The notes beneath the pieces are model-generated. The model did no database searches. It was not told the DNA's origin and saw only the letters and a list, made by a program, of their open reading frames with translations. 64,000 nucleotides of DNA from Carcharhinus longimanus (taxonomy: Eukaryota), in contig JASCQW010000032.1 in NCBI GenBank assembly GCA_030264375.1, forward strand, positions 31,197,022-31,261,021. The letters run 5' to 3'. Positions within the stretch are counted from its first letter, which is position 1. Every line of letters begins with the position of its first letter. Shown here one piece after another: positions 7,504-32,154 of this stretch. A program made the position numbers and the translations under genes.

Positions 7504-8147
7504 TAGTGGACTCCCCCACCANNNNNNNNNNNNNNNNNNNNNNNNNNNNNNNNNNNNNNNNNNNNNNNNNNNNNNNNNNNNNNNNNNNNNNNNNNNNNNN
7601 NNNNNNNNNNNNNNNNNNNNNATTGACTTTAAATGCCTTATGAAATGGCCAGTAAGCCACTCAGTTCAAGGACACTTAGGGGTAGACAATAAGTGCTGCC
7701 CCTGCCAACAATGCCCACATCCCATGAATGAGTTTGTTTTTTTAAATTAAGTTTTAATACCTGTGGATACATTCTAGGTCTAAATCTTTGTTGCACTATA
7801 AGATGCAAAATTGTGTGCAATTTAATCAGATGGATATGTGAATTTTTGTTAAATAGATGAAACTATATTTGTTTGTTTTTATAAGAACAACATAAAGCAC
7901 TGTCAATCATTGATGTGAAAATATTGCTTCATTCACTCCCGCATTCTGTTTTATTTTTGTTTTGAAGTGGAAGCTAACATTTTTTTGAGGGATAGGGAAT
8001 TTTCACAGTTCCTGATCAAAGAGGAATTGAGCACTCTTCACTTTGAGTAGTCAGGATCAGATATAGCACAAAGGAGATGTGGAGTTAATCTCTCTCTCCT
8101 CTGCCTCATAAGTATGCCTCAATCTTAACCTCTGCTGCACTAATTAT

Positions 8148-8535
8148 AGAATCCCTATCGTGCAGAAGGAGACCATTTGGTCCATTGAATCTGCTCCGAT
8201 CTTTTGAGGACCACCCCACCCAGGCCCAATCCCCTGCCCTATTCCAGCAACCCAACAAATCCACCATAACTAATCCAGCCACTCCACACACTAAGGGGCA
8301 ATTTAGCATAGCCAATCCTGCACACTTTTGAAGTGTAGGAGGAATCTGGAGGATCTAGAGGAAATCCATGCAGACACATGGAGAATGTGCACCTGGCATG
8401 GCAGACTGCTTCCATGATTATCGGTGAGTTGCCTCTGCGGTTGCAACCGACAGTCACCTGAGGCCAGAATTGGAATCTGGTGCTGTGAGAGAGCAATGCT
8501 CTGTGGTGGAACAGCACTAATCACTGTACCATCGT
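8148..8535 (-). mobile_element. HE1-like V-SINE with a ~55-bp internal insertion
   Basis: SINE sequence interrupted at ~8388-8441 by a segment matching 23430-23483 in reverse. Confidence 0.8.
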
Positions 8536-9894
8536 GCTGCATTTTCATCAATCATCCTGTGGTAAAACTGCTAAATGGATACTTTGGTGCTGCAGGCCTT
8601 TTGAATTTATTGTCCACAACAATTAAGATTTTCTTTATAAATCAATCAAAGAATACAAAGTGAAAGTAGAATTTTATGATTTTTTTGTCACAGTATATGC
8701 CATGAGTGCAAGTGAATGTTGATAATGGATCTATACCTATGATTAAAGATACTATCCAATAGTGTTAGCACCATTTTAATACTGTCTCCTTATCTTAATG
8801 CATGGTCAGAAATCCTGGCCTTTAACAAGGAGACAGCTGTATTGTCTCCACCTGGGAAGGAAGGTGCAAAAATGCAAGAGCTGAAATATGTTGGGGATTC
8901 TGAGCAAGAGCAAGGGAGATCATTCTACCAGTTACCAGGATTTTATAGCAGCAAATCATTGAGGAATTACCAACTGTCCCAAAGATTTCAAATACATTTC
9001 TTTTAAAATGTGTGATTTCACTTTCATCGTGTTCCCCTTCCCATTTAGGACCACGTAGGAAAATTATTCATCATGAAATGTTATATCATGTTTGGCGCAA
9101 AAGATAATTCATTGTGTATGTTTTAACTCAAGTAATAAAAAATCCTGGCATGTTTGAATCCTAATGCATATGATATTCACTGGCAATTTATCACTGTTGA
9201 TTAGGTTTTAAGTGCATTGGGCCCAAAATGCGCTGTTAAAATTAAAGCACCACTATTATTTAAAGTGTAAATGCTCAGCAGCTTTAGCCTAGGGACCAGG
9301 AAGTTGCTGTCAGATATCCACTGCTCTCTTATTAACTTTGTCAAAATGGACACCTTGCTGATGACTCCCCTTTCAAATTCATTGGGCATTAAGTTACTTT
9401 ACTTTTACTGTAGATGTGGTAAACTTGCTACAGTAAGTTAATTCAAATAATTTCTAAGTAAAAGTTTAACGATGACACTGTCAGTCAGACTTTTTGGCAC
9501 TGAAAATTAATAATTACACATGTAGAGTTTAATTCCTTCAGATTTTAATTGCTGTTGGAGAGTTTTTTAAAATATTAAATTAATGTTTTTTTTCTGCCTC
9601 TTTTCCCCTCTCTCTTCACCCAATATTCCTTTCCCTTTCTTTATTTCTCTTTTTAAACCTGATTTAGCATTGTATTCACCCATTCTAAAGATTCAATTTT
9701 AACTCTATGGAAATAGGTGCATTTTGAATCGGTTAGAATTGGGCCCTAAGTTACCTGATAGGTTATGCAGATATACAATTGGTCGTCTTGTTTACTGTGG
9801 GGCATGATGCCCTGTAAAGAACATCATACCTGAAGTTGGCAGTGTAAATCACCATGGAGATTAAACATGTCAGGATAAGTTGAACTAACAGATG

Positions 9895-11610
9895 GTGCCA
9901 TATTAAATATATTCTAACTGATGCATCCTTTGGTTCTGTCTTCATAAAAGAGGATGCAAATGACACAAGTACCACAAATGTTGGAGAACACAGGGTGTAA
10001 TGAGGGGGAGAAATTGGAAGAAGTCTGTATTGGCAGGGAAATGGTATTGGGGAAACTGATGAGATTAATGGCTGATAAATTCCCAGAGCCTGATGATCTA
10101 CATCTTAAAGTACTTAAGGAAGTGGCCCTGGGAATAGTGGATGCATTGCTGGTCATGTTCCAAGATTCTGTAGACTCTGGAAGTGTTCCTATGGATTGAG
10201 TGTCACTACTGTAAGCCCACTATTTGAAAAGGGAGGTAGAGAGAAAACAGGGAATTATAGACTAGTCAACCTGACATTATAGCGGTGAAAATGCTGGAGT
10301 CTATTGTAAAAGATTTATTAGCAGAGCACAGTGGCAGGATTGGATAGAGTCAGCATTGATTTATGAAAGGAAAATCGTGCTTGATAAATCTACCAGAATT
10401 CCTTGAGGATATAACTAGTAGAGTTGATGAGGGGCAGTGAGTGGATAAGGTTTATTTAAACGTTCAGAAGGCTTTTGCCAGGGTCCACGTTAAAGATTAG
10501 TATGTAAAATTAAAGCACATGAGATTGAGGGTAGCATATTGAAATAGACAGAGAAGTTGTTGGCAGACAGGAAACAAAGAGTCGGGATAAACAGATCTTT
10601 TTCCAAGTGCCAGGAAGTAAAAAGTGGAGTACTGCAAGGATCAGTGCTGGGACCCCACCGATTCACAATGTATATTAATAATTTAGATGAGGGACCTAAT
10701 CTCCAAATTTGCATATGGCTCCAAGCTAGCTGGGAAGATGAGCTGTGAGGAGGATGCAGAGGTACTTCAGTCTGGTTTGGACAAGTTGAATGAATGGGCA
10801 AATATATAACAGACACCATATAATACAGATAAATGTGAGGTTATCCATTTCAATAGCAAAAACAGGAAGGCAGATTATTATCTAAATTGCTATAGATTGA
10901 GAGGAGGAAATGTGCAACACAATCCAGGTGTCCTTGTACATCAGTCGCTGAAAGTTATCATGCAGATGCTGAGAATGGTGAAGAGAATTCTCTCGCCTTC
11001 GTAGCGAGAGAATTCAAATACAGGAGCAAGGATGTCTTGTTGTAGTTATACAGAGCTTTGGTGAGGCCACACCTGGAATATTGTGTGCAGTGTTGGTCTC
11101 CTTATCTGAGGAAGGATGTTCTTGCTATGGAGAGAGGGCAGCAAAGGTTTACCTAGTTGATTCGTAGGATGGTACGACTGAAATATATGGGGAGATTGAG
11201 TTTGTTAGGATTATATTCATTGGAATTTAAGAGAGTAAGAGGGCATCTCGTAGAAATGTAGAAAATTCTAACAAGGCTACACAGGGTAGGTTAGGAAGGA
11301 TGTTCCCAATGGTGGAAGAGCCCAGAACCAGGGGCCATGGATATGGGGTAAAACATTTAGGACTGAGATGAGGAGAAATTTCTTCACCCAGAGAGTGGTG
11401 AAGCTGTGGAATTCTCTACCAGCTGTTGAAGCCGAAACACTGTTTATTTTCAAGAAGGAGTTAGCTATATCTTATCGGGCTAAAGCAGTCAAAAGATATG
11501 AGGGGAAAGTGGGAACAGGTTACTGATTTGGATGATCAGCCATTATCATAATGAATAGAAGAGCAGGCTTGGAGGGCTGGATGACCTACTTCTATTTTCT
11601 ATGTTTCGAT
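9895..11610 (+). mobile_element. 5'-truncated, frameshifted CR1 LINE (~1.7 kb, RT domain and 3' end)
   Basis: Fragments [57 protein letters not shown]; tail ctacttctattttctatgtt. Confidence 0.9.
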
Positions 11611-11637
11611 ATTTGTTGACCAGCTAGAATCAATCTT

Positions 11638-11928
11638 AAAAAAAAGTTAAAAGTTTATTTATTCATCGCAAGTAGTCTTACATTGACACTGTAATGAAAT
11701 TATTGTGAAAATGATCAATGAATACTATAATGGCCTTCCATAATTTAATATGTGCATTTCATGCAATATTCCTAGTGACTCCTTAAGGTAGTAGAAAAGG
11801 TGGAGTGAAGTCCTTATTGACTTTTAATTGGCCACTTAAAGGCCTCAAGAGGCCCAAGGGCAGGCAAACATTTTACCTACCCACCCCTAATATAGAAGAC
11901 AGGCCAGGAGATGGTAGGAAGGCAGAGG
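11638..11928. repeat. Left arm of a ~290-bp inverted duplication
   Basis: Aligns by eye along its length to the reverse complement of 13736-14020. Confidence 0.9.
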
Positions 11929-12369
11929 GGCATTTATTAAATCTCTGAATATAAAATGTACACCCGATGCAAGCAGCAATGTGATTGACTGTCACCTTTT
12001 AGAACAATGGGCAGGATTTTCCACACAAACTGTTGCATCTTTCACAGTGGAGGCAGCCCGCAGTTGGCCAACGGTGGGGGAAGGATCTTCTGGTCCTACT
12101 GTTGTCAATGTTGAATGCAGTCTGTGCCACCAGGAAACCCACCAATTCCAGCCAATGTTTGGATTATCATCAAATTCTTAAAATTTTAGACTATTTATTA
12201 ATACCTTGTGCAGCCTTTGACTATTTAATTACAGACAGAGCGCGAGAGAGACAGGCAGACAATGATAGTGATATCTGGATGGTTCATGGTTTGTAACTAC
12301 TGTCATCTCATCTACCCACTTTGGTGCCTTCAATTAATCAATTAAAACTTTCTTCCCTAAGTTTCGTAG

Positions 12370-12675
12370 GATAGAATCCCTATAGTGCAGAAGGTGGCCA
12401 TTCGGCCCATTGAGTCTGCACTGACCACAATCCCATCCAGGCTCAACCCCTGTAATGTCACTTGCTTATGCTACTAACCCCCTGGCACTAAGGGGCAATT
12501 TAAAATGGCCAATCAACCTAACCTGCACATCTTTGAACATGGGAGGAAACTGGGACATTTGGAAGAAACCCACGCAGACAAGGAGAGAATGTGCAAACTC
12601 TATACAGACAGTGACCTGCAGCCAGAATTGAACTCAGGTCTTTGGCAGTCCGAGGCAGTAGTGCTAACCAATGTG
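12370..12675 (-). mobile_element. HE1-like V-SINE
   Basis: Reads tail (agaatccctatagtgcagaagg), V-domain, then head (gaggcagtagtgctaacca) on the + strand. Confidence 0.85.
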
Positions 12676-12746
12676 TTTCCAAAGGATATACGCTGAATAC
12701 ATTTTCAATGGAAATAGCGACACTTCAAGGCCAAGTAACTTCTTTA

Positions 12747-12950
12747 GAAAATGCTGGAAAATCTCAACAGGTTTGGCAGTGTCTCTAAGGAGAGAAAAGA
12801 ACTGACATTACAAAGGTTTGACAAAGGTCATCTGGACTCGAAACGTCAGCTCTTTACTCTCCTTACAGATGTTGCCAGACCTGCTGAGATTTTTTCCAGC
12901 CTTTTTCCTCTTGGTTTCAGATTCCAGCATCCGCAGTGATTTGCTTTTCT
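12747..12950. repeat. Quasi-palindromic ~200-bp interspersed repeat (possibly Penelope-derived)
   Basis: gaaaatgctggaaaatctca...tgctgagattttttccagc; related copies at ~5365-5465, 21200-21325, 30140-30265 and 46543-46752. Confidence 0.7.
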
Positions 12951-13735
12951 CAAACTAACTTTTTTATTTTGTGGGGATAACATTTTTAATATAAGTCCAG
13001 TCAGAAATAGAATGGAGCATTGTAAGGCAAACAAAAGATATCCTGGGGTACGTGATGAGCATCGGGAAAATGAAAATCCATGAGGAAGACAACTTGTCAA
13101 GGATAGATGATGTGGGATGTAAAGTTTGATGTATTTTCTGGAGATTTCCTTGATTTGCTTCTGAAGGTCCAGTGAGATACTACATAAAAAATATTCTTCA
13201 GGAAGTTGAATGGGGCAAATAGAGTCCAGGGGTGAGTTCATTATGCTTAGTCTGCAGGAGGAACGGGCTCAGTGAAAGGAATAACCTTTCTTATCGTTCT
13301 GCTCCATTTTTTATCATCTTCTCTTGATGTAAATTTAAATTTTTTATGCCTCACATCTGGTCTGAATTTGTGGAAATAATGTTTAAATTTCCACGTTAAT
13401 GAGACCTTGTTATTCAGCTGTTGGGAATTCTTTCCTTTGAGCTTCTCGGCTCACTCAACTGAAGACCCCCACTTTCTACTCTTTCCAGATTACTGACTGG
13501 AATAATATATATAGAGGGTCCTTGGCTCCAAACAAAACATGCGTTAGTGGTGAATCATGCATTAAGTATGCATATTTTTTTAACTCTTTAACCTTCCAAA
13601 GGCAAACATATTCAGACACAAAGAAAACCCCCTAGCTTTAAAATGTCTTCTGCCTATTGTGAGCTTTGCCATCTACATTATGGGCTGAATTTTACGGTTG
13701 ACCCATTTGATTGTAAACTAAAATGGGAAGTCTCG

Positions 13736-14020
13736 CCTCTGCCTTCCTACCATCTCCTGGCCTGTTGCTATATTAGGGGCAGGTAGGTAAAATGTCTGCC
13801 TGCCCTTAGGCCTCTTGAGGCCTTTAAATGACCACTTAAGAGTCACTAAGGACCTCACTCCACCTTTTTCTACTACCTTAAGGAGTCACGAGGAATATTG
13901 CATGAAATGCACATATCTAAATTATGGAAGACCATTGTAGTACTCATTGATCACAATAACTTCATTACAGTGTCAATGTAAGATTACTTGCGACTAATAA
14001 ATAAACTTCTAACTTTTTTT
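13736..14020. repeat. Right arm of the ~290-bp inverted duplication
   Basis: Reverse complement of 11638-11928. Confidence 0.9.
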
Positions 14021-17000
14021 CTATGTCCTTATTGGTTAAGTGCTGACCTCTACATCTTTCTTGCCTGCTTTTGTTACTGGATGGAATTCTCCCCACCAGC
14101 CTGCGGTGGGTTTGGTGGTGGGCAGGTGGAGTGAATCTGGCAGGAGCCAAAAATTTGGAAATCCCAAAGGCAGGTTAATGGCGGGTTGGTCTTCCCATTG
14201 GAAGGTGGCACAAGTGCCATTTGCGCTTCATGAATGTTCATTCAAACATTTGCCCGCCAGCATCCTGTTAGGCCTTTCAGTCTTGCATCACACTAGCAGA
14301 ATTTACATTGGCATAAAACTCACTTGCTAATGAGAGGCATACAAAATACTCGCCACATATTTCTGGGTGAGTGCAACAAATTTCTGTCATAATGCTGTGC
14401 TCCTCCTGATGTACACAATTCTGTTGAGGCAAACCAGTTCCTGCCCTCTATCTCCATGCTGAGCTGGTCTTCACGGACAGCACCGTGCAGCTGGACCCAG
14501 GGAACATGCTGTGTCACTGAGTCAGATCAGTATTGTGCCTGGGGTTGGCGACTACAGGGGTTTAATTAACCCTGATGCCACACAACAGTGTCTACCTGGA
14601 TAGCATTGTGGTGTGGGACCCGTGTGGCCACCACAGCAAAGGTCAGAAGTTTGTTTGTGGGGTGGATTGTGAGGTGAGGCCGGGGGTTGGGGAGTGTGAC
14701 CTAACAGACAATCGGGGGCAATGTAGAAGGAGGGCTGTGCAAGAAGTGGGGAAGGGAAGGGTTCATGATGGCAAGCAGAGGGGCAAGGAGGTGGATGAAC
14801 AATGAAAGGCAGAAGGAAGACTGAGGGTAGGAAACTGGATCCTGACAAGGCTGCCTGAAAAGCTCTCAAACAACGGGGTCAGAGCGATACCACATCGTTT
14901 ACTGGAAGGGTATGCACGAAGGCTCCAGATGCAATGGCACCAGAGAATCCCAGTCATGAACAAGGATGGCGATTTTTGGTATTAGTGTCAAAATGGGAAA
15001 ATTCTGCCTGTTGTTTCATAGTTCATAAAACTAATTGCATTCTAGTAAAAATTCTACCTAATTGCATTGTATTGAAATGTATTTGTAGCAAAGCCATTGG
15101 TTCAGTCCCTCATTTACCGTGCTGTAAACTTCCAAAACTGAAAATTTAACCATAACCTTGGCTCCAACAACCCGTCAACCTCCCCTCCCCACAACCGGTC
15201 TTCCAAACATTCTAGATATGTCTTCCTTTCCACCCAACCCGTGCTGCAGGTTTGAACACTTCCCTCAAAGTTGCTTTAATACTCTATTTTTCATCTAAGG
15301 CTTCAAAAAGTGAAGCAATAAATATTCTTAACGTGCCCTCTTCCTCTGATCTCTGTATCTTTTGCCCAAGTTGTGTTCCCTCCCAAAATAATAGAAATGG
15401 AATGGAGGTGTTAAACACAAGCTTTATTACAACAAGTTTTAATAGAAATAATTCTCCAATTTTTAAAATCTATTTCAAATTTATAATTAGACGTTGCTTT
15501 CGAATTCACTGACAAATTACGTTCTAATAATTATTTTCTACATTCCAACTTCTAAGCTTTAGAAGATTTTTCAGAAATTGACTTCAGAAAAGCATTGATA
15601 AAGTCCATCTATTATACTATTAACTGGTACCTTCCTTGCTCATAATACCCCTATAAAAATTAGCATTATAAGCACTTTCGTATGTTTGGAAACACATTTT
15701 ATAAATGAATTGTGTAAGAGCTAATGATGAAATTTGGTTTCCAATTCTACTGTGGATGTGAATCAAAGTTTGTTTTAAACATATTTATTGTATTGTTCAT
15801 GCTGACATATGGAAATACCTCTCCTATCTCAATGCTGGGCATAACATATTGGCCAGATCTTCCAGTCTCTAGGTTGTTGGAGATTGAATACATAACCCAA
15901 GATCTGTGTTGGGACCCTGCCGAAGTCCCATTGTTCTGAACTCCTTGGGAATTTCCCAGGGACTTTGAATTTCCAATTGACAACTCCCCTGCTCTTCAGG
16001 AACCACCACTAAAGTCTCTGACTCGGAGGTTGAGTTGGAGTCTTCGGACAGTTCTGTGAAACTTACCTGGCTAATTACCCAGGAAATATTAGACAAAAAG
16101 TACTCGGTATAACTCATGAGTAACTACAGACCTGATGCCCAATCACTCACGTCAATCCCAGAGTAACATCTCTCCCACTGCACGACTCCCTGATTAACTC
16201 CTACTACTACTTGCCCTGACCACTCTGATTATCCCGACTCAGCTACCTCCCCAACCCCATAACTAACTATCGATCCAAATTATCCATCCTTAACAAGACA
16301 TAACTATCCCCTCACCCACCACCACCAGACTACACCTTCAACCCAACATAATTCCCTTCTGAGTACATTTGCCTATCTGATTTGACTACCCTGCACCCCC
16401 TTATAGATTCACCCACCTATCACACTATGCCCACCCTACACACTGGCCATTCCAGACAGTTAATGTTCTACCCATCTGCCACTTGCAACCCCACTCATAC
16501 CACTCTAACACCCGCCACCCTAACCCCCTGCCAATCTACCCATTACCATCCTGCCCATTCACTTATTCATCTGATTGCCCATTCACCCGTTCACTAAGAT
16601 TCATTCAGGATATTTAAACCCACCATATGGCAGCTGGTGCCATTAAGCTGAGATGTGATTTGTCTTCCCCCAACACTACAGAAAAGCAATGGAGCGCTAT
16701 GTGGGATTTAAGCTCCATTTTTCTGAGGCAGCTGGCTCAGAAGACTCGGCCAGAAATGCAGAACACCTTTGTGGCATTGAAAATTTTGAGAGGAGTGGCA
16801 ATCCGGTAATGGTTGCTGCTTTGTGGAGGATCCTGGCTATATTTATTACAGAAAGAATCGTGACAGACTGCATTGAACTGGATTTTAGTTTTGCAGTTGT
16901 CAGCCAATTAGGATTTTTCTTATGTCTGCTCAACAGCAGAGAATTATAGAAGAATACAACACAGAAAAGAAACTACTGATCCCATTGGGCCTGTGCTGGA

Positions 17001-17118
17001 CATTGATTTGGGTTTTACAGTGACAATGATGGTGAAAGTATCATTACCCCACTGAAACAAACAGCAGCTTCTGGAGTTCACATCTGCACAGAATAATGCA
17101 ACACTCCAGAAGCTACAG

Positions 17119-18430
17119 CAGGGATTCCCAAACTGTGGGTTGCAATCCTGAGCTCCGTCCCACCTCTCAGGCAGCAAAGGGGACTATTATGATTAGTATA
17201 AAGTGGAAAGTGCACTTCCTTGTGCACTATACAGATGAAGCATATGTACATAGAGAAGAAAAGAGAGAGTGCAGAATGCAGTGTTACAGTCATAGAGAGG
17301 GTGTAGGGAAAGATCAGCTTAATATGATGTAGGTCCATTCAAAAGCCTGATGGCAGCAGGGAAGAAGCTGTTCTCGAGTCAGTTGGTACTTGTCTTCAGG
17401 TTTTTGTAAGTATTTCCTGATGGAAGAAGGTGGAAGAGAGTATGTCTGGGATACGTGGGATTCTTAATTGTGCTGGCTGCTTAGCCGAGGCAGCAGGAAG
17501 TGCAGACAGAGCCAATGGATGGGAAGCTGCTTTGGATGACGGACTGGGCTTCATTCACAACTCTTTGTGGTTTTTTTGTGGTCTTGGGCAGAGCAGGAGC
17601 CACACTAAGCTGTGATACAACCAGAAAGAAAGCTTTCTATGGTGCATCTGTAAAAGTTGGTGGTAGTCGTTGCTGACATGCCAAATTTCCTTCGTCTTCT
17701 GAGAAAGTAGAGGTGATGGTGGGCTTTCTGAACTGTAGTGGCAGCATGGGGGGATCAGATTGTTGGTGATCTGGACACTTAAAATCTTGAAGATCTCGAC
17801 TATTTCTACTTCGTCCCCATTGATGTAGGCAGGGGCATGTTTTCCACCATGCTGCCTGAAGTCAATGACAATCTCCTTCGTTTTGTTGTCCTTGAGCGAG
17901 AGATTATTGTCGTCGCACCAGTTCACCAATGGAGCAGAGGCTCTGGTTCATGGATCCCTTGGATCAACGCTGCCAAATAGCAGGAGACAGTGAACCCAAT
18001 GCCTGCCCCCTAAAGGCTAAAAGCAACTTTTAGTGCGGTGTTCGAGTGGGCCAGGGGTGTCTTTGCACCGAATTAGGACACTAATCACAGCTTCAGCTTT
18101 TACTATATTTTTGCTCTTGCCTGCCTTTTGTAAAAGCTCATTAAACAGGGATAATGATTAAGGGGTGTGTTTGTGCGCACGTGTGTGTCTGTGTGTGTTT
18201 GGCACAAATCTAAACGAGCACATTAAATAACAGCATTCTCACAAAGTGCTTTCCAACACATGTTTGTATTTATGTGGTGTATGGTATGTGAAATACACAG
18301 ACTTTAATATTTATAAACCAAATGTTACCATGCTGTTTTACTGCTGCTCTATTTCTTCTGATGTCTGGGGTCATGCTCATTTTCGGAAGTTAAAATGGGG
18401 TCACATTGGAAAATAGTTTGGGAAGTACTG
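17119..18430. mobile_element. hAT (Charlie-like) non-autonomous DNA element hosting a nested LINE fragment
   Basis: Termini cagggattcccaaac ... gtttgggaagtactg are imperfect inverted repeats; 8-bp flanks agctacag / gtctagag resemble a decayed NTCTAGAN-type target duplication. Confidence 0.55.
17190..17930 (-). mobile_element. Rex1/Babar-like LINE 3' fragment
   Basis: ORF 17555..17929: WCDDNNLSLKDNKTKEIVIDFR...YINGDEVEIVEIFKILSVQITNNL; same family as 5825-6277. Confidence 0.8.
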
Positions 18431-18587
18431 GTCTAGAGGGTACACTGTTGAGGCACCTCCAGAATTTGATGGGTTTGATGTAGGAAGTCTTGTAACACAG
18501 GGGTAGTGTACACACCTCAGGGCCAGGAACTCTGGGTTCAAGTCTCCCATGAGGACTCGTTAGCTGCTGAAGAAGCATTTATACCAT

Positions 18588-18905
18588 GGCAGCACAGTAG
18601 CACAGTGGTTAGCACTGCTGCTTCACAGCTCCAGGCTTGGGTCACTGTCTGTGTGGAGTTTGCACATTCTCCTCATGTCTGTGTGGGTTTCCTCCGGGTG
18701 GTCCAGTTCCCTCCCACAGTCCAACGATGTGCAGGTTAGGTTGATTGGCCATGCTAAAATTGCCCTTAGTGTCCTGAGATGTGTAGGTTAGAGGGATTAG
18801 TGGGTAAAAATATGTAGGGATATGGGGATAGTTCCTGGATGGGATTGTGGTTGGTGCAGACTTGATGGGCTGAATGGCCTCTATCTGTACTGTAGGGATT
18901 CTATC
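18588..18905 (+). mobile_element. HE1-like V-SINE
   Basis: cacagtggttagcactgctgc...ctcccacagtccaacgatgtgcaggttagg...tgtagggattctat. Confidence 0.9.
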
Positions 18906-18914
18906 TATTGGAGT

Positions 18915-19230
18915 CTACAAGTTTGTGAGGTGGTTTGATGCTGAAAGGACATTTCCCCTTGCAAGAGAGATCAAAGCTACAGGACAGAGTTTAAAAATTA
19001 TATTTTCTTTTTCTATGAGTGTTGATGGTCTATGAAATTCTCTTCCACAGAGAACAGTGGCAGTTGGATCACTGAATATTTTTAAGGTTGAGTTGGATAG
19101 ATTTTGGTTGACAAGAGAGTAAAAGGGGAGGCAGAAAAGTGGAGTTGATACTACACTGGTATGAGTTATCATCTTACCAAATGATGGAGCAGGCTTGATG
19201 GGTAGAATGGTCTTCTCCTGCTGCAAATTA
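18915..19230 (+). mobile_element. CR1 3' fragment
   Basis: tgaaattctcttccacagagaacagtgg...gatggagcaggcttgatgggtagaatggtcttctcctgct. Confidence 0.7.
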
Positions 19231-19309
19231 GTAAGTAAACTCAGTATAGAAGTACCAGTGTTTCATGAGAGTTCCTGATGGTGTGAAACTCAGTCACTTG
19301 GCATCCGTG

Positions 19310-20567
<1,258 letters not shown>

Positions 20568-21144
20568 CTGGGAAGGAAATGCAAGAAGCCAAGGAAAATC
20601 AGTGTAAGTGATTGAAGGGTTCTGGTTTATCCTGGGAAATTAGATACACTGCACTCTCTCAGACTGCACATTCCCAATTCAGCTATCAGACACAGCACTG
20701 GGCAAAACTGTCAAATCACAGCCCAAGCTTCTGGGAAAGACAGAGGCCTTCAGATAAAAGCTACAAAGAAAACATTAAAAGACATTAAATGTGCCTCTGT
20801 CTCTAGTGACCCATCAACAAAACTCAGCCTATAAATCAGAAGAGCTTCCAATAAACACATTCAATATCCAACACACAGCTTCAACCAAACAACTCAGCAC
20901 TCTGACAGCTCTCAGCCAATAAGGGAGAGAACGCATAATAAACCTACCCATAATACCCATGTCAATCACTCCAGCCAGTTCTGTGCAGGTGCTTTCAGAC
21001 AGATTCTCATCTGCCCAGAACTAAACCTGTTGGACTTTTCACCTGGTGTTGTGAGACTTCTTACAGAACAACATTACCCATGCTGCATATGGCCTTGGGC
21101 CTAGGCAGTGAGGAGTGGCAGTATGGAATCAGGGGAGCCAGCCT

Positions 21145-21183
21145 GCGATGCTTGATGGGAGTTGTAGTTCTGCCATGCGCAGT
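21145..21183 (-). promoter_or_regulatory. ZNF143/THAP11-type ACTACAnnTCCCA motif plus NRF1-like site (probable promoter of the ZNF pseudogene)
   Basis: Minus strand: ACTGCGCATGGC-AGA-ACTACAACTCCCATCAAGCATCGC; a donor-like site (CATGG/GTAATG) follows at 21078/21077. Confidence 0.6.
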
Positions 21184-21469
21184 GGCGGTTGGAGTTCAGC
21201 ATAAAAATAAATTACTGCAGATTCTGGAACCTGAAACCAAAAGAGAAAATGCTGGAAAATCTCAGCAGATTGGGCAGCATCTATAAGTAGAGAAAAGAGC
21301 TAATGTTTTGAGTCCAGATGAGCTTGCTAGACCTGGAGCGTGAGCCCAAGCAGGTGGATCAAATTGAAAAACAGAGATTGACCCTTGGTAGGAACCAGAG
21401 TGATGGCAGTGGGGAGATTCACCATTTGAGGAGATTCTCTGTATACAACTGAAGGATCCCAACTGTCCA

Positions 21470-21653
21470 CATTATGTATTCATAATTTGAAGAGGGAACT
21501 GAATGTACTATGTCCAAATGTGCAGATGATACAAAGTTGGGTGCAAGGGTGAGCTGTGAGAAGGATGCAGAGATGCTTCAACGTGATTTGGACAGGCTGA
21601 GTGTGTGGGCATATTCATGGCAGATGCTGTATAATGTGGATAAATGTAAGGTT
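21470..21653 (+). mobile_element. CR1 RT fragment
   Basis: ORF 21510: SKCADDTKLGARVSCEKDAEMLQRDLDRLSVWAYSWQMLYNVDKCKV. Confidence 0.85.
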
Positions 21654-22288
21654 CAATACATTCAATATTTTGGCATTAACTACTTCCTGTGGTAATGAAT
21701 TCCACAGGCTCACCAGTTTTTGGGTGAAGGAATGTCTCCTCCTCTCCGTCCTAAGTGGTCTACCCCAAATCCTCAGACTGTGACCCCTGGTTCTGGACAC
21801 CCCCACCATTGGGAACAATGACCCTATATCTACCCTGTTTAGTCCTGTTAGAATTTTATAAGTCTCTGTGAGATCCCCCTTTATTCGTCTGAACTCCAGC
21901 GAAAACAATCCTAATCTCATCGATCTCTCTTCATACATCAGAGCTGCCATCTCCGGAATCAGCCTGGTAAACCTTCGCTGCACTCTTGAGAAATCAAGAA
22001 CATCCTTCCCAGAAAAGGAGACCAAAACTGCACACAATATTCTAGGTGTGGCTTCACCAAGGCCCCTGTATAATTGTAACAACGCATCCCTGCTCCTGTA
22101 CTCCAAACCTCTCGCAACGAAAGCCAACATACCATTTGCCTTCTTTACCGCCTGCTGCACCTGTGCGCTTACTTTCAGTGACTGGTGCACCCAGATCCCT
22201 CTGCACACTTCCCTCTCTCCAGTTTACAGCCATTCAGGTAGCAATTTACCTCCTTGTTTTTGCTTCCAAAGTGAATAACATTTATCCA
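21654..22288 (-). mobile_element. CR1 ORF2 C-terminal fragment in the opposite orientation
   Basis: ORF 21615..22208: HQSLKVSAQVQQAVKKANGMLAFVARGLEYRS...RVQRRFTRLIP...LWNSLPQEVV. Confidence 0.9.
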
Positions 22289-22351
22289 ACTTATATTTTC
22301 AATGCAGCAACATTCTCCACTCGTTTTCCCTCCCCCACCCCCGGCACTGAC

Positions 22352-22491
22352 CTGTTCCATTCTCCGCCCTCTCCTGGGAACTCAGCCATGCATCGCTGGC
22401 CCCGTCGCACCTCCTCGCCCTTGAGGAAAGGTTGCTCCTGTGTGATGACGGACAGGGCGTTGAAGAGTTGGCACATCTTCACGTAGGTCTC
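22352..22491 (-). other. tdrd10: Isolated 140-nt coding-like exon resembling the TDRD10 Tudor domain
   Basis: Acceptor ctctctgtctctacccag/GAG; open frame ETYVKMCQLFNALSVITQEQPFLKGEEVRRGQRCMAEFPGEGGEWN(R); donor AACAG/gtcagt. Resembles recalled human TDRD10 (ALHQNMQALFSTLAQAEEQQPYLEGSTVMRGTRCLAEY..GHAWNR). Confidence 0.7.
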
Positions 22492-25400
22492 CTGGGTAGA
22501 GACAGAGAGGAATCAGTCCCGTTAAATCCCAAACCTGATGGGAGGGTCGATGTCCACCTCACCACATTCCTTGCCAAAAGGAGGAATTCATACTTCTACA
22601 CCTTTCACAATCGCAGGATATCTGAAAGTGCCTCNNNNNNNNNNNNNNNNNNNNNNNNNNNNNNNNNNNNNNNNNNNNNNNNNNNNNNNNNNNNNNNNNN
22701 NNNNNNNNNNNNNNNNNNNNNNNNNNNNNNNNNNAGTGTCCTGAGATGTGTAGGTTAGAGGGATTAGTGGGTAAATATGTAGGGATGTGGGGATAGGGCC
22801 TGGGTGGGATTGTGGTCGGTGCAGACTCGATGGGCCAAATGGTCTCTTTCTGTGCGGTAGGGATTCTGTGATTCTAATTGGACTGAAAATGTGCCTGAGA
22901 ATCCTTCCACCATCCTCAAACCTTCTCCAAAGGAAACAAAAGTGTGCAAAAAGGCCACAAAAAATGGAATTGATGTGAAGTCCCACTCTTATGTTCTTAT
23001 TCTCATTGTAAAAACACTTGAACAAGCTATACTTTGTTGAAGAAGGTGCATCTGGGTTTTAACATTAACAAACTTCATAATTACAAATATTTGAAGGTAC
23101 ACATTGCATTATGGCTGGAGCATTGCAGGAGAGGGGCCGTTATACTATTTGTGGTGGGTAGAACCCCTTTCGAAATACCCTCCCCCCCCATCCATCCAGC
23201 CCCCACCGTGGCGATGGAATTTGGTTCACGACATTGACGCCTTATCAGGTCGAAAGGTCCTGGGGCCATATTTATAGTCTGCACTATTGCTTCCACCTTT
23301 GGCCAGACTCTGTTCCATCTTTGCCTGCCAGCCCCTCTTCCCTTCCTCGGTCGACCTCCATGCAGCTCGCATTGCCACCACCTGGCCTCAAGCATAGGCT
23401 GGCATTTACAGACACTCCCCAAAGGGGGCACCGCAATGACAACTCGCCGGTAACCATGGAAGCAGCCTGCCATGCCAGGTGCACACCACTTACGTGTGGC
23501 ACTGGCTGGCGCTGCTGAGACTACAGAGCTGCTAGCCAATCTGATTAGCTGGCGTCTTTCTGAGGCGGGGGTGGGGTTTTATGGCCTTCCTCGTCCCGAA
23601 AATGTAAAACCCCACCCGAGGTCCACGGGCCTTCCCATTGTCTGCCCTTCGACCCCAGATTCTCATAGTGGGTGGGGCGATAAAATTCCGGCCAGGATCT
23701 TTTGCCTGATGAGGGGCAGAAGTCCGGCCTCCAGCCAATCAATGCTGCTCAGAACATTAAATGGCTTTGGGGCTGTTGTGATTGGTGGAGATATTTATGA
23801 TGTTGACTCTGTATGTGGTATCTGCTGCGAAATCCTGCCCATTTAATGCTAGATATAAAATTCAGGATTGTATTTGTCTTTTTGAGGTTGTACATACTGC
23901 CATCTTCAACAGCCTGTCTATCTACATAACACAGTCTCTAGTCGTCTTTTGTATTTAAAAGCTAATTATTTAAGATATACTTTACCCCCTTACTCTCACC
24001 TCCAAACTACACAAATCTGTATTTNNNNNNNNNNNNNNNNNNNNNNNNNNNNNNNNNNNNNNNNNNNNNNNNNNNNNNNNNNNNNNNNNNNNNNNNNNNN
24101 NNNNNNNNNNNNNNNNNNNNNNNNATCTGTATTTGTCCTCAAACTTTCAAATACCTAAACCAGATAAGAGAGTAGTTGTATGGGACATCAATGGTGGCCA
24201 TACATGGTGCTGGTCATTTATTCCAGTATTTTATAAGCTTATTTTCATTTGTTTCAGCACATGATAGATTCAACTCTTTGGGGACAACTTTGAGCCCACA
24301 TTCTCCATCTGCGGGAATGGAGGCGCGCAGTCAAGATTTGAAAAGCGCCATTTGCATCGGCAAATTTCTGAGTTCCAATCTTACTGGCCCCTCACCGGTG
24401 GAATAATCTGAAACATGCTACAGGGCCACAGAAAACTCATTTTAATACATTATCATGTCATTAGCGAGCACTCTCTTCAGGGCTTCTCCCTTCACTGGAC
24501 ATCCAGTAGGCACTGGTGTGACGCCACGACAGCCCCCATTTGCAACAGCTCTACATAAGCATAAACCTGGTACCTTCACCTCCGAGGGAAATTTTGGAAG
24601 TGGGCGCTCAGGCGGCCAGCACCCGCCATGGTGTGCACAGCTCAGGGGGCATCAGAGAGGACGCAGGGAACACAGATAAGTTCAACTCAGGGCCGGGGGT
24701 CCCATAATCACACCAGTTCAGGGAGAGGGGTCGAGAGGGGTCACTTGGAGGCCTTACCTTCCCTTCATGTTAGGGTGCCCCTTGCACTAAAGGCTGCTAA
24801 TGCTTCCTGTGCCCACTTTGCTGGGTTCCTGTCCATATCACAGTTGAGGCAGTGTCTTTCCTTAATGGGGGCTGGTAAGAGGGTGGATGGGACATACACT
24901 CCCACCCTCACACTCTACAGAGATGAGGCACCAGGTGAGCGCAGTGTTTCCCCCAAGCATGAACAGACAGGGTTTAGGCTCCGTTGGTGAACAAAGTGAA
25001 ATTTAATGCCAAACTTGTGTTTTTCCTCTGGGTGTTCTGGATTCCTCCCACTGTCCAAAGCTGTTCAGGTTAGGCAGATTGGCCATGCTAAATTGCCCCT
25101 TAGTGTCCCAGGATGTGTAGGTTGAATATTGTAAAACGCTTAACAGAGCTAATTGAATGTTACGATGCAATCTGGAATATTATAATACTGTGCAAACACT
25201 CCCAATGGATATCTTCACCATATGGAAACCTATTTCAGAAATGCAGGTATGCACTGGCCCATGATTGTTCAACCATTCATTTTGATGATTGAAAGGCTCT
25301 TGGGATGCTGTGCATCAGATTCCTGACATGCAAACCCAGCATGTGGTAAACTCCGCACCGTAAGGACGCACTTCTAAACTTTTCCCTGGCAAATCTATGA

Positions 25401-31944: not shown

Positions 31945-32154
31945 ATCCTTTAAGCTGCACTCAATACGGCACCTCCTACCAAAACAAAGATGTCTGGAAA
32001 CCGGAACCCTGTCAAATCTGTGTGTGTGATGAAGGGATAACACTTTGTGATGAAATCACCTGTGAGGAACTGTATGACTGTGATAGACCTATAATTCCAT
32101 TCGGAGAATGCTGTCCCATATGTCAATCTAGTGAATCAGACCGATATCCTGAAA
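31945..32154 (+). CDS. col5a2: Fibrillar collagen (COL5A2-like) exon 2, VWC domain, 210 nt, phase 1-1
   Basis: ttcgttag/ATCCT...GAAA/gtaagt; [70 protein letters not shown] has the 10-Cys clade-A collagen VWC pattern. The symbol is the best recalled match; orthology is not proven. Confidence 0.95.

Follow-up and report, generated by a model that had tools for sequence, protein, structure and literature searches.

A tdrd10 exon assembled within a collagen intron of Carcharhinus longimanus very probably belongs in a gap of the native tdrd10 locus

A lone coding exon lying antisense inside a collagen gene invites the question of whether it was copied or moved there in the animal or put there by the assembly. 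We examined this for a stretch of 64,000 nucleotides from the shark Carcharhinus longimanus (contig JASCQW010000032.1, here C32), referred to below as the window. A preliminary description had reported there an orphan, TDRD10-like Tudor-domain exon, for which it offered three origins: a recent copy, a selected exon or a misplaced contig.

An intact exon assembled in a collagen intron

The exon occupies positions 22491-22352 on the minus strand. It is 140 nt long, runs from phase 0 to phase 2 and encodes 47 residues free of stops. On its upstream side a single-copy intron flank (22492-22634, minus strand) carries a polypyrimidine tract and an AG acceptor and stops at the end of the contig; the acceptor is pyrimidine-rich and ends in CAG. 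The downstream flank (22296-22351, minus strand), also single-copy, contains the AG/gtcagt donor and a G-rich tract. Both splice signals and the phases thus agree with the preliminary description. Its account of a GC- and CpG-rich, stop-free segment encoding this same peptide was likewise accurate, as the exon has a GC content of 0.593 and contains 8 CpG where the window averages 1.8 per 140 nt, and at least 8 CpG were counted in 18 of 3,193 sliding windows when the window was scanned.

Database searches confirmed the proposed identity. All 12 protein matches, from 17 candidates, were shark TDRD10-like proteins, with 85-96% identity and a best E value of 2e-22; judged from the sequence comparison, the match is not due to chance. 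The peptide corresponds to residues 212-258 of a 345-residue protein of Mustelus asterias (P0003), to which 45 of 47 residues are identical. In P0003, Pfam places an RRM_1 domain at 40-104 and a TUDOR domain at 211-305, so that the exon supplies the first half of the Tudor match. It has the same place in the RRM_1 and TUDOR protein of Scyliorhinus torazame (P0002), and its sole difference from these shark relatives is its assembled position, on C32 instead of in a gap on another scaffold, C8. Searched by itself, the peptide gave nothing useful in Pfam, PDB or the ESM Atlas, and a 46-residue piece had no Pfam match. A search of a representative library returned three matches, namely shark TDRD10, an unnamed relative at 79% and a weak match to a repeat protein, which was dropped since that protein is unrelated.

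The collagen gene lies on the plus strand and the tdrd10 exon is antisense to it. A von Willebrand factor C (VWC) exon, exon 2 of a clade-A, COL5A2-like collagen, is found at 31945-32154 (plus strand) and marks the end of an intron 1 of about 135 kb; it is followed by Gly-X-Y exons of 45, 54 and more nucleotides. Upstream of the window, at a distance of about 103.6 kb (C32:31093421), there is a likely signal-peptide exon 1, whose gtaagt donor is in phase 1. With exon 1 upstream and the VWC exon at 31945, the tdrd10 segment is therefore in collagen intron 1 as assembled. A second VWC collagen exon (C32:31681900-31682064, minus strand) belongs to a gene converging on the collagen of the window from 450 kb away, as we would expect of a COL5A2/COL3A1 pair. 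From this neighbour and from the exon pattern that we take to be that of COL5A2, we infer that the host is COL5A2. In a database search, the collagen matched other VWC collagens; no match was named COL5A2, and none was a shark COL5A2. The preliminary description was right about the antisense position within a collagen gene, as assembled, while the COL5A2 name that it used is inferred. A decayed C2H2 zinc-finger array, with repeated HTGEKP-type linkers, stops and frameshifts, also lies antisense in this intron (19380-20140, minus strand), and was present in all four public sequencing runs compared.

The tdrd10 locus on scaffold C8

A tblastn search of the window with 12 shark TDRD10 proteins gave this exon alone below an E value of 0.1, in line with the earlier observation that no neighbouring tdrd10 exons are present. 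The remainder of the gene is on scaffold C8. Full-length P0003 gave ten matches in the genome, six of them exons at C8:2155629-2170809 (minus strand) and three weak ones elsewhere; residues 209-259 matched the window only. A local tblastn search on C8 raised this to nine tdrd10 exons at E < 0.05, together with a weak one at the 5' end; the exons follow one another in the expected order. The window exon, first described as an orphan, is not one biologically; the rest of its gene is on C8 with a run of Ns where it belongs. This run, 3,202 Ns at C8:2157635-2160836, separates the exon that ends with residue 211 (C8:2161865) from the one that begins with residue 258 (C8:2157375).

The native neighbours fit the exon of the window. 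Upstream, the coding sequence breaks off in phase 0 at a gtaagg donor, and downstream it resumes in phase 2; insertion of the window exon in silico joined both neighbours in frame and matched the orthologues. Because 140 is not a multiple of 3, leaving this exon out of tdrd10 shifts the frame ahead of the second Tudor half. Beside its own 45 of 47 residues, the native neighbours have 46 of 50 and 48 of 52 residues identical to P0003, and a comparison over 13 proteins gives the same picture. By these alignments the window exon is conserved as much as its native neighbours, with no decay.

No second copy of the exon was found in the assembly by DNA or peptide search, although a copy within the C8 run of Ns would be invisible to both. 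The sole DNA match of 22290-22634 in the assembly (G000) was the window itself, and the peptide gave two matches, of which the window was the only significant one (the other had an E value of 9.6). The preliminary description had named an exon missing from the native locus as the sign of misassembly, and this is the outcome obtained: a single copy, absent from its native position, with a gap at that place.

An SH2 gene whose best matches are SHE lies head-to-head with tdrd10 at C8:2180441-2214370 (plus strand). In three sharks (Mustelus, Heterodontus and Chiloscyllium plagiosum), the contigs recorded for SHE and for TDRD10 have identical lengths, and this synteny is present at the C8 locus and not at the window position; C8 is the syntenic tdrd10 locus. 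The SHE protein of sharks and rays has about 640 residues, compared with 420-500 in most tetrapods, and a long first coding exon. With SHE as a control, no displaced exon was found, and displacement is therefore not the rule at this locus. With the queries used, the exon for residues 139-161 of tdrd10 was found neither on C8 nor elsewhere in the genome; the interval in question (C8:2162015-2164420) contains a 100-N gap.

The composition of the exon and its flanks resembles that of C8. The 100-base flanks have a GC content of 0.47 for the window exon and 0.46-0.545 for all nine native tdrd10 exons, as against 0.285-0.37 for all 11 collagen exons, and tiles reaching the GC content of 22298-22634 are found in 30 of 168 cases on C8 versus 12 of 510 on C32. 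The CpG observed/expected ratio is 0.66 in the window exon and 0.58-0.98 in the large native tdrd10 exons. This similarity accounts for the retained CpGs, which had been taken to suggest one of the three origins and need no special cause. The two regions also differ in their completeness. In the C8 region 66,762 of 140,000 bases are N (48%), in 48 runs, with a GC content of 0.496 and a median piece of 1.35 kb, whereas a 204-kb region of C32 has 17,639 Ns (9%), a GC content of 0.428 and a median piece of 3.2 kb. Withheld sequence also reads as N, but with 48 such runs in 140 kb, the evidence points to the Ns at the missing exon being an assembly gap.

Repeats and public contigs beside the exon

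A gap-free contig of 15 kb (7622-22634) contains the exon, and the piece that bears it is bounded on both sides by a repeat or a gap. To the right, 143 bases from the exon, is a 100-N scaffold gap (22635-22734). To the left is a LINE fragment, presumably of the CR1 family (fragment B, 21652-22295, minus strand), which is of high copy number, contains the C-terminal part of the reverse-transcriptase ORF and has no 3' tail. It meets head-to-head a second fragment, for which we assume the same family (fragment A, 21453-21653, plus strand), attached in turn to the AT-richer sequence further left. Fragment B is 83-86% identical to the 39 other top copies shown and fragment A up to 91% identical to other copies; the nearest copies of A are 67-74% identical to B, and those nearest to B are 75% identical to A. 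On these identities, the two fragments are assigned to different subfamilies. Both lack their 3' ends, and the 3' break of A and the 5' break of B nearly coincide in element position. Fragment B has the same sense as tdrd10 and lies downstream of the exon. As the exon is on the 5' side of an element without a 3' tail, the arrangement is not that of LINE 3' transduction.

Contigs from four of the 21 listed public runs (X1, X2, X3 and X6) were aligned to window positions 19000-22634; these contigs are short and cover the window side only. None of the listed runs is recorded as holding RNA, which does not bear on expression. Run X2 matched the window without any difference over 1,572 bases in four unique contigs, and is probably of the same species and possibly the source sample, in which case it is not independent. 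The exon and its upstream flank travel together on public contigs, two of which run 219 and 386 bases past 22634. In three of the four runs (X1, X3 and X6) the exon contig extends 30-45 bases into the 5' end of fragment B, and the junction between exon flank and fragment B is therefore real. A contig of X6 (21242-21542) ties the unique sequence on the left to fragment A. Among the contig pieces listed none bridges 21542-22253; contigs break at repeats, and we do not count this as evidence.

In each of the four runs, the depth of the exon contig (22253-22634) is roughly half that of unique contigs further left. Summed across 22416-22537, depth amounts to that of one contig per run (4.29, 5.27, 4.67 and 6.01), while unique contigs left of the exon mostly have depths of 7-14, with one X1 contig at 4.5. 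A second copy in the genome or the contigs, as a duplicated or transduced exon would leave, was not found. The single version in each of the four runs, with a depth that is low rather than doubled, is a hint in the same direction, contig depth not being a copy number. We favour GC bias as the cause of the low depth. The SHE-TDRD10 region is, we assume, that of human 1q21 and chicken chr25. X-linkage or hemizygosity is not favoured, because the shark X is orthologous to chicken chr33 according to one study (PMC11406177).

Explanations for the assembled position

Taken together, these observations make it very probable that the exon is the single, intact tdrd10 exon missing from the C8 gap, and that an assembly error running through the neighbouring LINE repeats put it in the collagen intron. 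The exon itself is real and ordinary; its location in the collagen gene is most likely false. Of the three origins first offered, the evidence favours the misplaced contig. In the animal, the exon would be flanked on C8 by those encoding residues 162-211 and 258-310, splicing would be in cis, and the product would be an ordinary RRM-plus-Tudor TDRD10 protein. The TDRD10 family has a presumed germline role. A contig-extension, gap-filling or scaffolding step may have crossed from a LINE in the collagen intron into one in the tdrd10 intron, with extension then stopping at a repeat or gap near 22630. Because the X6 contig ties the left sequence to fragment A and the exon contigs enter fragment B, the false join would most likely be somewhere in 21543-22253. 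The misplaced block would then measure about 0.4-1.1 kb, which fits the native gap of 3,202 Ns. Some observations speak against this course of events. Among the contigs aligned to the window, none was seen to link the exon to either edge of the C8 gap. The longest exact overlaps between the edges of the C8 gap and the window are 17-32 bases, the longest of them lying elsewhere in the window; the false join would sit inside a gap-free contig and not at a run of Ns; the coincident breakpoints of two LINE subfamilies are not predicted by a random chimeric join; and the control gene SHE has no displaced exon.

In a study of draft assemblies (PMC9516821), missing exons and Ns in coding sequence are the commonest false gene losses and are tied to GC content and repeats, with translocation-type errors among the rarest. 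Our case is similar in its GC-rich, repeat-rich and gap-ridden small scaffold and in an exon absent at a gap and found elsewhere; it differs in belonging to the translocation type, rare in that study. Nested antisense genes and transduced exons in large introns also place an intact exon antisense in an intron, here one of 135 kb. They differ from the present case, which has no other exon, no second copy and no LINE 3' tail beyond the exon; as further tdrd10 exons are on C8 and none is in the window, this is not a nested antisense gene.

An assembly error could also have its join further left, so that several kilobases, or the whole 15-kb contig 7622-22634, would come from the tdrd10 intron with both LINE pieces native there. 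This would explain the coincident element positions of the A and B breakpoints, and the contigs listed do break at 20246-20314, 20638-20676 and 21238-21242; a block of up to 3.2 kb would fit the C8 gap. Fifteen kilobases are too many for it, however, and the sequence at 7622-21450 (GC 0.418, CpG ratio 0.235) is like C32 (0.428 and 0.28) and unlike C8 (0.496 and 0.438). Contig depth, moreover, shifts between 21542 and 22253 in all four runs, and we give a join further left little chance.

That the assembly is right, and the exon truly on another chromosome in a collagen intron, either as a LINE-carried copy of pre-mRNA or as the sole, trans-spliced copy, is very unlikely. In the case of a duplicate, tdrd10 pre-mRNA or DNA with the exon and an intronic LINE would have been copied into the collagen intron, for example if a CR1 reverse transcriptase primed on the intronic LINE, which is sense-oriented, and the native exon would be hidden in the C8 gap. 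The sense orientation of fragment B downstream of the exon would allow such a route, and the gap would conceal the native copy. Yet each of the four runs gave one contig version at low rather than doubled depth, 3' transduction is excluded by the missing 3' tail of B and the exon on its 5' side, and the exon shows no decay relative to the native exons; we consider a duplicate highly improbable. Least probable of all is a cut-and-paste move to another chromosome, after which tdrd10 would be broken or would depend on trans-splicing for its completion. Taken at face value, the assembly does have a single copy, on C32, but a sized gap lies exactly at the missing exon on C8, the C8 exons found are open and conserved, loss of this exon frameshifts the Tudor domain, its splice sites and flanks are intact, and it is kept in place in twelve shark proteins. 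For a vertebrate gene to depend on trans-splicing between chromosomes would be extraordinary. Were the location real and the copy unique, this would be a vertebrate germline-type gene with a relocated exon or with interchromosomal trans-splicing, which nothing here supports.

If the exon was indeed misplaced from the C8 gap, tdrd10 would be called frameshifted or pseudogenic in this assembly, as searches of the locus did not find two of its exons, and the collagen intron would contain sequence foreign to it. The significance would then be one of annotation only, in the mending of two gene models. It would also call for caution with other GC-rich orphan exons found at contig ends in this assembly, since these can be pieces of small, gap-ridden scaffolds that were misplaced. 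Among the other shark proteins, P0002 is shifted at its C-terminus and in P0010 the end of the RRM is duplicated internally; this suggests that tdrd10 is subject to problems of annotation or assembly in further sharks as well.
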